64,000 nucleotides of DNA from Rubrivivax sp. (GTDB taxonomy: Bacteria; Pseudomonadota; Gammaproteobacteria; Burkholderiales; Burkholderiaceae_C). Of the stretch, positions 15,484 to 22,585 are shown piece by piece. Made by a program: the position numbers and the translations under genes. The stretch lies in NCBI GenBank assembly GCA_027484825.1, contig JAIXSE010000028.1, positions 68,925-132,924 of the forward strand. Direction: 5' to 3'. How positions within the stretch are numbered: position 1 is the first letter of the stretch; every line of letters begins with the position of its first letter. Below the pieces are notes generated by a model that worked only from the letters and a program-made list of their open reading frames with translations, was not told the DNA's origin and searched no databases.

Positions 15484-16623
15484 ATGACCGACACGCCGCG
15501 TGCTTCCTATGCCTCCCATCCTGCACAGAGCCGCGGCCGGCGATTTCCCGAGCGCCCGGCGCCCACGCGCAGCGACTACCAACGGGACCGGGACCGCATC
15601 GTTCACAGCAGCGCGTTCCGGCGCCTGGTCTACAAGACGCAGGTCTTTCTCAACCATGAAGGCGACCTCTTCCGGACCCGCCTGACGCACTCTCTTGAAG
15701 TCGCGCAACTGGGCCGCTCCATCGGCCGCAGCCTGGGTCTGGACGAAGACCTCATCGAAACCGTGGCCCTGGCCCACGACCTGGGCCACACCCCGTTCGG
15801 CCATGCGGGGCAGGACGTGCTCAACGACTGCATGCAAGCGCACGGGGGCTTTGAGCACAACCTCCAGTCCTTGCGGGTGGTGGACCAGCTCGAGCAGCGT
15901 TACCCCCAGTTCGACGGCCTCAACCTCAGCTTCGAAAGCCGTGAAGGCATCCTCAAGCACTGCAGCAAGCGAGACGCGCTTCGTCTGGATGCAGCGGAGC
16001 CCGGCGGCGTTGCTGCCCGCTTCCTGACGGGCGGGCAACCCAGCCTCGAAGCCCAGCTCTGCAACCTGGCCGACGAAGTTGCCTACAACGCCCATGACGT
16101 GGACGATGGCGTGCGCTCGGGCCTCATCACCTTGGAGCAGCTCGAGCAAGTGCCCCTGGTCAAGCGTTTCCTCGACGACACTCTTCGAGAGTTCCCGCGG
16201 CTCACCGGCAAGCGGCTCCTGGCGGACACCATTCGGCGCATGCTCTCCGAGCAGGTCTACGACATCATCGCCGCCACCCGAAGCGCCATCCAGCAAGCCG
16301 GCATCACCACCGCCGACGACGCCCGCGCGTCCGGCCCCCTGGTGCGTTTCAGCCCGGACATGCGGCAGGCCAGCACCGAACTCAAGCGCTTTCTCTTCGC
16401 CAACCTCTACCGCCATGCGGCGGTCCAGGACAAACGTGCGAGTGCCGAAGAAGTCCTTCGCGACCTCTTCCAGATCTACCTGAGCGACCCGTCCAAGCTC
16501 CCGCCCGACTGCGCCAATCCGGACGACCACCCCAGGGCCTGCGCCGACTACATCGCGGGCATGACCGACCGGTATGCGCTGCGAGAGCATGAGCGCCTGA
16601 CGGGGAAACGACTCTTTGGCTGA
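15484..16623 (+). CDS. dgt: dGTP triphosphohydrolase (HD superfamily)
   Basis: 'RTRLTHSLEV', 'LAHDLGHTPFGH', 'DYIAGMTDRYA'. Confidence 0.95.
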   Translation: MTDTPRASYASHPAQSRGRRFPERPAPTRSDYQRDRDRIVHSSAFRRLVYKTQVFLNHEGDLFRTRLTHSLEVAQLGRSIGRSLGLDEDLIETVALAHDLGHTPFGHAGQDVLNDCMQAHGGFEHNLQSLRVVDQLEQRYPQFDGLNLSFESREGILKHCSKRDALRLDAAEPGGVAARFLTGGQPSLEAQLCNLADEVAYNAHDVDDGVRSGLITLEQLEQVPLVKRFLDDTLREFPRLTGKRLLADTIRRMLSEQVYDIIAATRSAIQQAGITTADDARASGPLVRFSPDMRQASTELKRFLFANLYRHAAVQDKRASAEEVLRDLFQIYLSDPSKLPPDCANPDDHPRACADYIAGMTDRYALREHERLTGKRLFG

Positions 16624-16785
16624 TTCCTTGCGCGGTGCCACCGGAATGGGATTGGAGCGCCTGGCCAGGGGGAGGGCGTTTCGTCAGGTTGCCAGGTCTT
16701 GATGGGGGTGAGGGGCTACGACCCGTGCTTTGACGGCACTGCTGCACTGTCCCGATGCCGGGTCTCGTGAAAGTCCTCGGTTCGA

Positions 16786-16888
16786 AAAAGCTGCTGCCCG
16801 GGGCCCTTTTACGGAAGTCAAGAAGGGAATGGCCGGCGAAGCCGGACAGGAATGACATGAAGTAAAAGGGCCCCGGGCAGCAGCTTTT
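16786..16888. repeat. Perfect 27-bp inverted repeat pair with 49-bp spacer (REP-doublet/REPIN- or MITE-like)
   Basis: aaaagctgctgcccggggcccttttac (16786-16812) is the exact reverse complement of gtaaaagggccccgggcagcagctttt (16862-16888); the spacer holds the mini-hairpin ccggc-gaa-gccgg (16833-16845). Confidence 0.93.
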
Positions 16889-16914
16889 GAGCACCCGCCC
16901 CAAGCATCCGCCAC

Positions 16915-16929
16915 AATTGGGGACAGACT
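16915..16929 (+). repeat. Left ~15-bp inverted repeat flanking the RAYT-like gene
   Basis: aattggggacagact matches the reverse complement of 17639-17653 (aaatggggacagact) at 14/15. Confidence 0.85.
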
Positions 16930-16953
16930 CACTCCCACGTCCCGCAAAAGCAG

Positions 16954-17655
16954 ATGGCCCGCCTCCCCCGCCTCGCCTTGGCGAACCACCTCCACCACGT
17001 CATCCACCGCGGCCACAACCTGCAGCCGATTGCCCAGGACGACGACGACCGTCGTGCCCTGATGGCGGCTTTGCAGGACTGCGCCGCCACTTACAAGGTG
17101 GCCATCCACGCCTACGTGGTCATGCCCAACCACCTTCATCTCCTGGCCACCCCCACCACCAACGAGGGTCTGTCCAGAATGATGCAGGCCCTGGGCCGCC
17201 GCTACGTCGCTGCTTTCAACCAGCGTCACCAGCGCGTGGGAACGCTCTGGGAAGGGCGGTTCCGAGCAGCGCCCGTCGAAGCCGCCACCTTCCTGCTCCC
17301 GCTGATGCGCAGCATCGAACTCAACCCCCTGCGCGCCGGCCTGGCCACCGAACCCGCCGACTACCCCTGGTCGTCCGCCGCCCACCACCTTGGCCGCCGC
17401 CGCGACCCGCTCATCAGCGATCCGCCGGACTTCTGGGCCTTGGGCAACACCCCCTTCGAGCGGGAGCTCACCTGGCGCCGCTGGCTCGATGAAGGTGAGC
17501 TGGAGACTGAGCGCCAACGCCTGGTGGACGCCGCCATCAAGGGCTGGCCATTGGGATCGCCCGCATTTCTGGCCGCTCTTGCCGAACTCAGCCCCCGCCC
17601 CACCGCCCCCCGCCCCCGCGGTCGCCCCCGCAAACAGCAGTCTGTCCCCATTTAA
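16954..17655 (+). mobile_element. RAYT-like (Y1 HUH) protein with catalytic Tyr replaced by Ser and a C-terminal AT-hook
   Basis: 'MARLPRL', 'HHVIHRGHN', HUH motif 'AYVVMPNHLHLL' (H60/H62), 'GTLWEGRF', 'RSIELNPLRAG' (family YIxLNPxRAG), 'DYPWSS', 'PRGRPRK'. Confidence 0.9.
17639..17653 (-). repeat. Right inverted repeat, forming the last codons of the RAYT-like ORF
   Basis: agtctgtccccattt; encodes ...SVPI and runs into the TAA stop. Confidence 0.85.
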
Positions 17656-17682
17656 ACGACAAGCCTCCATCCGTCGCCCGCT

Positions 17683-17703
17683 AATTCGACACTGACCCCA
17701 TTT
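17683..17703 (-). repeat. Third related repeat copy upstream of the gltB promoter
   Basis: aattcgacactgaccccattt; reverse complement begins aaatggggtcagt, sharing AAATGGGG(A/T)CAG with the other copies. Confidence 0.7.
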
Positions 17704-17711
17704 AGTTCTGC

Positions 17712-17740
17712 TTGTGTGCGCCCCCCGGCGTTGCTAACCT
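17712..17740 (+). promoter_or_regulatory. Putative sigma70 promoter of gltBD
   Basis: TTGTGT-N17-TAACCT, with TGn extended -10. Confidence 0.5.
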
Positions 17741-17776
17741 GCGCGGGTTTCCCAAGAACTCCCCTGGAGGCCACCG

Positions 17777-22585
<4,809 letters not shown>

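Follow-up and report, generated by a model that had tools for sequence, protein, structure and literature searches.

What function remains for a transposase-like protein that has lost its catalytic residue, while its gene keeps one fixed place in the genome, is the question raised by a locus of Rubrivivax sp., which lies in a 64,000-nt stretch of assembly GCA_027484825.1 (contig JAIXSE010000028.1, positions 68,925 to 132,924; the whole stretch is hereafter called the window). There, an intact open reading frame (ORF) of 233 aa on the + strand (16954–17655, ATG start), termed gene X here and labeled simply 'transposase' in databases, precedes gltB, the gene of the glutamate synthase large subunit, and encodes a Y1 HUH protein of the TIRYT type without a catalytic Tyr. 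Loss of the Tyr, purifying selection on the gene, synteny with gltB, and conservation and phasing of short DNA sites around the gene were all observed. The reading that we favor, with a probability of roughly 60%, is that gene X is a domesticated, non-cleaving TIRYT-type protein that binds the former terminal inverted repeats (TIRs) of its element and regulates itself and gltBD.

The assignment of gene X to the Y1 HUH proteins was supported by both profile and structure comparisons. Pfam Y1_Tnp (PF01797) matched the protein with an E-value of 1.8e-10 (41.4 bits; cutoff 23), and an AlphaFold2 (AF2) model built with 60 homologues reached a predicted local distance difference test (pLDDT) score of 90.5 and a predicted template modeling score (pTM) of 0.85. 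The best Foldseek match of this model in the PDB was the Escherichia coli TnpA-REP (4er8_A; E 1.7e-8, TM score 0.76 normalized to the target, 159 columns), followed by the ISDra2 and IS608 TnpAs; the matches to 4er8, 2xma, and 2vjv had E-values of 1.7e-8 to 1e-5, and those to IS200/IS605 TnpAs E-values of 5e-6 to 1e-4. The HUH motif is encoded by the H60-L61-H62 codons (17131–17139, + strand), which are kept in close homologues, and the sequences GTLWEGRF, DYPWSS, and PRGRPRK occupy residues 96–103, 136–141, and 221–227, respectively. HMMER alignment to 4er8 placed SIELNP of gene X opposite YIYINP of TnpA-REP, with S120 (AGC, 17311–17313, + strand), which falls within LMRSIELNPLRAG, at the position of the catalytic Tyr in the YxxxNP motif. 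The nucleophilic Tyr of TnpA-REP lies four residues ahead of N119, and S120 lies likewise four residues ahead of the equivalent N124 (17323–17325, + strand); S120 thus occupies the nucleophile position. N119 is the third metal ligand of the E. coli enzyme (PMC6006769). The ORF list and the translation therefore bore out what the first-pass annotation had read from the letters, that is, an intact 233-aa frame carrying these motifs with Ser in place of the catalytic Tyr.

Contigs from two independent freshwater metagenome runs were identical to the window over 16833–17900, and six Mitsuaria/Roseateles noduli genomes (L001–L006) carry intact orthologues of 233–236 aa, 77–80% identical to gene X, with AGC at the same codon. 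A sequencing error, which had already been considered unlikely on first inspection, and an assembly error were both ruled out by these identical contigs and the shared codon.

Residues at position 120 were then tabulated across orthologues. Among the 120 closest cluster representatives (57–89% identity; from Roseateles, Paucibacter, Pelomonas, and Ideonella), Tyr was found in 56, Ser in 29, Phe in 19, Cys in 10, Ala in four, and Leu in two. The surrounding residues R119, I121, E122, N124, P125, and R127 were 96–100% conserved in the same set (N124 in 96%), H60 and H62 were kept in 97 and 98%, respectively, and the GNTPF sequence at residues 164–168 was invariant. A neighbor-joining tree, on which changes were counted by parsimony, was built from 200 non-identical orthologues (123 with Tyr, 35 Ser, 22 Phe, 11 Cys, four Leu, four Ala, and one Asp). 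Position 120 changed at least 19 times on this tree, close to the protein median of 21.5, while H62, E122, P125, and R127 changed 3, 4, 3, and 5 times, respectively, and 29 maximal clades were uniform for a non-Tyr state. The 45 sequences closest to the window all lack Tyr at this position and read MRSIELNP, MRAIELNP, or MRCIELNP, so that the loss extends well beyond one strain. As the codon of L007 is TGC for Cys, a path from TAC through TGC to AGC is plausible for the lineage of the window. No other Tyr looked like a substitute in the alignment: Y54 and Y84, conserved elsewhere in gene X, lie opposite Trp and Phe of 4er8 and vary to Trp, Phe, or His in the wider family, and position 113, on the helix shared with S120, is Phe in the window and Tyr, His, Trp, or Phe elsewhere. 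These results indicate that the Tyr is dispensable for the selected function of family members at this locus.

The same residues bear on whether gene X could still be an enzyme, either with Ser120 (Cys in sister lineages) as the nucleophile or by using water at the HUH-metal site to nick the GGGGWCAG repeats with no phosphotyrosine intermediate. Either Ser or Cys could act as a nucleophile, the HUH motif and N124 are 96–98% conserved in the Tyr-less clade, and the Ser is always encoded by AGC in seven species-level members despite pairwise dS values of 0.5–2.5, all of which would suit retained catalysis. Against it, Ala is found in relatives of 81% identity (P0004, P0005, P0023, and P0029), and Phe, Leu, or Asp in further lineages. 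Because Ala cannot be a nucleophile and Ser, Ala, and Cys interchange among the closest relatives, Ser chemistry, which had been left as an alternative by the first-pass annotation, is unlikely. Moreover, Y1 HUH transposases and relaxases in which the Tyr is mutated to Phe still bind DNA without cleaving it. Distant gltB-linked orthologues, described below, drop both His residues yet keep the gene and its sites. An enzymatic gene X is therefore considered quite improbable.

To evaluate how far the decay of the active site extends, a profile search of 1.84 billion representatives was used, which returned 3036 proteins at E-values up to 1e-30; the best 150, taken as 50%-identity clusters, were nearly all full length. 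His was found at position 60 in 75 and at position 62 in 92 of these 150, and Tyr at position 120 in 88. Other positions were almost unchanged, with R102 in 151/151 and S141, N89, G96, R170, and G223 in at least 96%. Decay was concentrated in representatives that bear the C-terminal domain signature G164-N-T-P-F168 (17443–17457, + strand), which gene X of the window carries and which marks the subgroup losing the catalytic triad most often: both His and the Tyr were kept in only 15 of the 88 GNTPF-bearing representatives vs. 54 of the 63 without it. Conversely, the GNTPF residues were kept in 91–100% of the catalytically degenerate representatives vs. 25–43% of the intact ones (86% for G164). 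Four degenerate members on long contigs (P0131, P0132, P0133, and P0144), which have no Pfam hit on record, and two from genomes (L060 and L072) are encoded directly upstream of gltB, that is, every degenerate member whose context was examined adjoins gltB. Judged from this distribution, the Ser of the window appears to be an early step on a path that many lineages took further.

Selection on the gene was assessed from the ratio of nonsynonymous to synonymous substitution rates (dN/dS). All 80 orthologues were intact ORFs, of 227–260 aa. Among the seven Ser-clade genes, the NG86 dN/dS was 0.06–0.16 with a median of 0.104 (21 pairs), far from 1, with the reservation that NG86 is a simple estimator and dS exceeds 1 in several pairs. 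The divergence within this clade all post-dates the loss of the Tyr. Tyr-bearing pairs of comparable divergence (dN < 0.2) gave a median of 0.100 (48 pairs), and this likeness between the two groups shows no sign of relaxed selection. Tyr-bearing pairs chosen by a dS of 0.4–1.3 instead (dN/dS 0.375) were dropped as a comparator, because their proteins are far more divergent and their dS is saturated. By domain, the Ser-clade ratio was 0.078 for the N-terminal HUH part and 0.102 for the C-terminal part. Protein identity between L001 and the window was 79% for gene X, much like that of its neighbors (81% for dgt and 74% for aroB). Leaf-litter metatranscriptome contigs spanned the whole ORF at a depth comparable to that of the flanking dgt and gltB, which is consistent with expression, with the reservation that the depth of contigs measures expression poorly and that carried-over DNA may contribute to it. 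These results demonstrate purifying selection on gene X. A missing catalytic residue and the label 'transposase' are what a decaying transposase pseudogene, or an artefactual Ser, would present; identical independent assemblies, AGC in six genomes, a dN/dS of about 0.1, 80 intact orthologues out of 80, a confident AF2 model (pLDDT 90.5), and metatranscriptome contigs over the ORF leave such an explanation scarcely credible, and simple decay and sequencing error are excluded. The earlier preference for an exapted, non-cleaving HUH protein at a core locus over decay was thus strengthened by the low dN/dS, the intact orthologues, the synteny, and the occurrence in more than one strain.

The position of the gene was as well kept as its reading frame. 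In 77/80 species-level Burkholderiales genomes, spanning the Sphaerotilaceae, Comamonadaceae-like, and Oxalobacteraceae lineages, gltB directly follows gene X in the same orientation. In the window, gltB is at 17777–22585 (+ strand), and the N-terminal region of its product is 72–95% identical downstream of gene X in 77/80 loci. The upstream neighbor varies: Sphaerotilaceae-type genomes have the order aroB, dgt, gene X, and gltB, with dgt, encoding a dGTPase-like HD protein, at 15484–16623 (+ strand) of the window (assigned by ORF and synteny, with HD and HD_assoc Pfam hits on the L081 orthologue), while in the Oxalobacteraceae the adjacency of gene X and gltB holds with a neighbor other than dgt. 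The order aroK, aroB, dgt, gene X, and gltB was confirmed in the window. As judged from gene order, gene X behaves as a resident that is inherited vertically, and not as a mobile element. In L055, a close Glaciimonas relative of L053, no gltB match was found within the locus.

Short DNA sites flank gene X on both sides. The left TIR, site U (AATTGGGGACAGACT; 16915–16929, + strand), lies 38 nt ahead of the ATG and forms an inverted repeat with the right TIR, site D1 (AAATGGGGACAGACT; 17639–17653, – strand), which overlaps the last codons of the gene. The two are 93% complementary, and both contain GGGGACAG; the GGGGWSAS matches of the window are GGGGACAG itself at 16919–16926 and its complement at 17642–17649. 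A second downstream copy, site D2 (TAAATGGGGTCAGTG; 17689–17704, – strand), lies 50 bp past D1. Compared across loci, the three are instances of a recurrent site of about 20 bp with the consensus TTAAATGGGGWCAGAGTCAATT. Site U stands in forward orientation 24–75 nt ahead of the ATG in 56/81 loci, often with ATAAT or TATAAT as its A/T arm; D1 is inverted, usually GGGGACAG, and located at or near the gene X stop codon; and D2, also inverted, reads GGGGTCAG. The spacing between D1 and D2 was 50, 49, and 48 bp in 31, 22, and 22 loci, respectively, that is, in 75 of the 76 loci with both sites. Other matches with up to one mismatch numbered only about 12 in ~560 kb of flanking sequence, and no further copy was found elsewhere within the 64-kb window. 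The sites persist in Tyr-less and HUH-less lineages and are thus not maintained merely as cleavage substrates.

Some further features of the sites were observed. The last codons of gene X, TCT GTC CCC ATT TAA (SVPI and stop; 17639–17655), are D1 itself, and many orthologues end in SVPI, SVPN, TVPN, or DPN, likewise from the overlap; the extreme C-terminus is therefore set by the DNA site and not by protein function. Two or three tandem U-type sites occur 70–150 nt upstream of gene X in the Oxalobacteraceae L044, L047, L049, L066, and L070, and tandem sites also occur 46–97 nt upstream in L016 and L019 (Roseateles/Paucibacter), while the clade of the window has a single site. In the metagenomic orthologue L086 (216–267 and 1009–1027), U and D2 are near-perfect palindromes, AATTAGGGTCAGACTCCAATT, and a duplication of U forms a long inverted repeat. 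Judged from this locus, the complete site appears to be a dyad centered on the W, which is compatible with dimer binding to double-stranded DNA, and also with a hairpin in single-stranded DNA.

The downstream sites are phased to what looks like the gltB promoter. When 78 loci were aligned on D2, a conserved (C/G)TTGAnn appeared 6–9 nt past D2, followed by TAnnCT after about 17 nt; together they plausibly form a sigma-70 promoter that serves gltB. The putative core promoter of the window (17712–17740, + strand) consists of a –35 element TTGTGT (17712–17717), a 17-nt spacer, and a –10 element TAACCT (17735–17740), with D2 8–9 nt ahead of the putative –35 element. The distance from D2 to the gltB ATG had a median of 78 (standard deviation 22), and that from the gene X stop to D1 ranged from –43 to +744. 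In L053 and L074 (Glaciimonas and Janthinobacterium metagenome-assembled genomes), 620–740 bp are inserted between the gene X stop and D1, and the D1-D2 pair stays beside gltB.

That the pair segregates with gltB and not with gene X, and that the A/T-rich arm of D2 lies directly upstream of the –35 element, would also fit promoter elements of gltB serving another factor or RNA polymerase itself (as a UP-like AT-rich element), with gene X a passenger or kept for something else. Such an explanation is very improbable, as the same motif stands in inverted orientation upstream of gene X in 56/81 loci, it is the published TIRYT-flanking signature at unrelated loci in other phyla (PMC3733652), and a passenger gene would not give a dN/dS of 0.1.

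A different possibility is that gene X is non-catalytic and selected, with a job unrelated to gltBD, for example on single-stranded DNA, at the replication fork, or in the nucleoid, and that the adjacency to gltB and the sites are a frozen relic. Y1 transposases act on single-stranded DNA at the replication fork, and the SS motif has been proposed as a fork-targeting element (PMC6006769); an immobilized element remains at its landing spot, and the upstream neighbor varies by family. Relic sites would have decayed, yet across the order the motif is conserved, as are the phasing of D1 with D2 and the spacing of D2 from the promoter; the pair stays with gltB after insertions, and the 64-kb window has no further copies. 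We hold a function apart from gltBD to be unlikely on this balance.

The favored reading, a non-cleaving protein bound to its former TIRs, can be laid out as follows. An ancestor shared by many Burkholderiales would have fixed a TIRYT element just ahead of gltBD and passed it on vertically from then on. Its selected function would be independent of the Tyr nucleophile, which was replaced by Ser in the lineage of the window; without the Tyr, no covalent 5′-phosphotyrosine intermediate could form, and hence neither cutting nor transposition would occur. Sequence-specific recognition of TTAAATGGGGWCAGAGTCAATT, the former TIR sequence, would have been retained. Site U overlaps an ATAAT-like element just ahead of the gene X start codon, and D1 and D2, 48–50 bp apart, would be separated by about five helical turns, with D2 ending 6–9 nt ahead of the gltB –35 element. 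From the conservation of sites and protein, we infer that gene X binds U, D1, and D2. Binding would probably involve the C-terminal domain, which is helical and invariant, and the RGRP tail (R222-G-R-P225; 17617–17628, + strand), an AT-hook-like basic motif in a disordered region (pLDDT ~60); contacts in the minor groove would be favored by the A/T-rich arm of each site, and the HUH fold would be left with a scaffolding or oligomerizing role. Bound gene X would control its own transcription from U and that of gltBD from D1 and D2, and the regulation, including its sign, we infer from where the sites lie. The C-terminal AT-hook named in the first-pass annotation stands as a sequence, since PRGRPRK is present and G223-R224-P225 is invariant among the 120 closest homologues; the label itself received little support from Pfam AT_hook (PF02178), which scored 13–15 bits (E 0.02–0.1) against a cutoff of 17.4.

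A bolder version of this reading takes gene X as a Burkholderiales-wide transcription factor derived from a TIRYT transposase. Of the former TIRs, one would now act as the operator of gene X itself, and two, in phase with each other at about –50 and –100, as operators of the gltBD promoter; with DNA recognition alone required, the Tyr and then the HUH motif would have been lost repeatedly and independently. We put this forward tentatively, at somewhat less than even odds.

Several observations weigh against regulation by a non-cleaving gene X. The C-terminal domain resembled no known domain or fold: for residues 146–233, Pfam at E-values up to 10 gave only a weak sub-threshold AT_hook and a spurious NDUF_B12 match; a separate AF2 model of residues 136–233 (pLDDT 76.6) found no PDB fold match, with nothing from Foldseek at E < 9; and the helix-turn-helix (HTH)-like similarity reported for part of subclass 2.1 was not reproduced in gene X. 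A simple consensus scan of 16600–17800 for promoters and terminators returned nothing, and the –35 and –10 elements come from the comparative alignment. The H-H-Y triad is intact in 68/81 species-level orthologues, in which catalysis may still matter, and with the HUH motif and N124 so well conserved in the Tyr-less clade, a metal-dependent activity could persist. Finally, the adjacency to gltB could be historical, as of an immobilized element staying where it landed.

Gene X belongs with the TIRYT/TIRtron proteins (TnpA-Y1 subclass 2.1, RAYT Group 1), as a catalytically degenerate variant and not as a standard member. TIRYT/TIRtron genes carry TIRs with GGGGWSAS on both flanks (Di Nocera et al., 2013; PMC3733652), and subclass 2.1, which is Group 1 of the RAYTs (Bertels et al., 2017; PMC5581495), is defined by NHxH, W[EQ], YIELNP, and SS motifs, a median length of 238 aa, and no repetitive extragenic palindromes (REPs) (Table 1 of Quentin et al., 2018; PMC6006769). 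At these motifs gene X, of 233 aa, reads NHLH, LWE, SIELNP, and WSS, and it shares with the TIRYTs a size of about 235 aa that includes a C-terminal extension, the NHxH, WE, xIELNP, and WSS motifs, low copy number, absence of REPs, and flanking GGGGWSAS inverted repeats. Of the first description as a RAYT-like HUH protein, the Y1 HUH fold and family therefore stood, while a REP-associated RAYT was rejected: the flanks are TIRs (inverted repeats with GGGGWCAG), not hairpins, and the equivalog cutoff of NCBIfam REP_Tyr_transpos (NF047646) was marginally missed (79.5 bits vs. 80, that is, by 0.5 bit). With this near miss, and with no Pfam hit recorded for the more degenerate orthologues, automated annotation scatters a single orthologous group over the labels 'transposase', 'REP-associated tyrosine transposase', and 'hypothetical protein'.

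Gene X also differs from the published TIRYTs. Both surveys found the Tyr and HUH conserved in all members studied (PMC3733652, PMC6006769), and sequences without them were removed by Quentin et al. as probably non-functional (PMC6006769), whereas gene X has Ser and its family includes whole lineages without Tyr and/or HUH under purifying selection. Its fixed spot upstream of gltB, the second phased downstream site, and the link of that site to the gltB promoter are absent from the descriptions in those papers. The HTH-like similarity (Bac_DnaA_C, HTH_23, and HTH_28) reported for the C-terminal domain of subgroup 2.1.2 (PMC6006769) was not detected in it. The E. coli TnpA-REP (RayT/YafM, 4ER8) shares the HUH motif, the Asn ligand four residues past the nucleophile position, and a W-x-F/S-S motif; unlike gene X, with which it is 16% identical, it has Tyr115, cleaves and rejoins REP single-stranded DNA hairpins, is flanked by REPs, and is a protein of 165 aa without the C-terminal domain of ~90 aa. 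The IS200/IS605 TnpAs (IS608 and ISDra2) share the HUH/Y1 fold; they are mobile, multi-copy proteins of about 130–150 aa with a YxxxQ motif that recognize subterminal hairpins, whereas gene X, without the Tyr and bordered by TIRs, occurs once in the window and at a syntenic position.

A long hairpin between dgt and gene X (16779–16895) was also found, with 34-nt arms (16779–16812 and 16862–16895) of 91% complementarity around a 49-nt loop. It was rejected as a cognate REP, since it is absent from the orthologous loci L001–L006. Its central ~50 nt (core ~16812–16866) are multi-copy in the source community, with a contig word depth of 250–340 vs. 7–8 for the flanks in DNA runs and 1260–1700 vs. 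30–55 in metatranscriptomes, and other copies of the core are joined to different arms, themselves palindromic. An Rfam search on the hairpin gave only spurious microRNA hits below threshold. The hairpin could be a dispersed element of the miniature inverted-repeat transposable element (MITE)- or REP-like kind, or a structured RNA in which the loop is conserved and the stem varies.

To our knowledge, RAYT/TIRYT proteins are widespread single-copy 'domesticated' transposases that have no assigned cellular role. An earlier study had already proposed that RAYTs are domesticated (Bertels et al., 2017; PMC5581495), and in the literature searched there was no report of Tyr-less or HUH-less TIRYT/RAYT members under selection, of linkage to gltB, of phased sites at the gltB promoter, or of relevant cofitness data. 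The published surveys presume an intact catalytic centre, while the gene X subgroup can do without catalysis, and selection across the order has preserved the protein together with its location and its DNA sites. A parallel lies in another transposon family. TldRs are nuclease-dead, TnpB-derived repressors, in which a transposon nuclease has been turned into a site-specific transcription regulator of host genes; they belong to the RuvC/TnpB family and are RNA-guided, whereas no guide RNA is indicated for gene X. If the favored reading is true, gene X would have the first cellular function assigned to a domesticated RAYT/TIRYT-type protein and would be a TnpA counterpart to these nuclease-dead regulators, and the 'transposase' annotation of thousands of genes would need correcting. 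Its sites sit in the putative promoter of the genes for glutamate synthase, an enzyme at the core of nitrogen assimilation.

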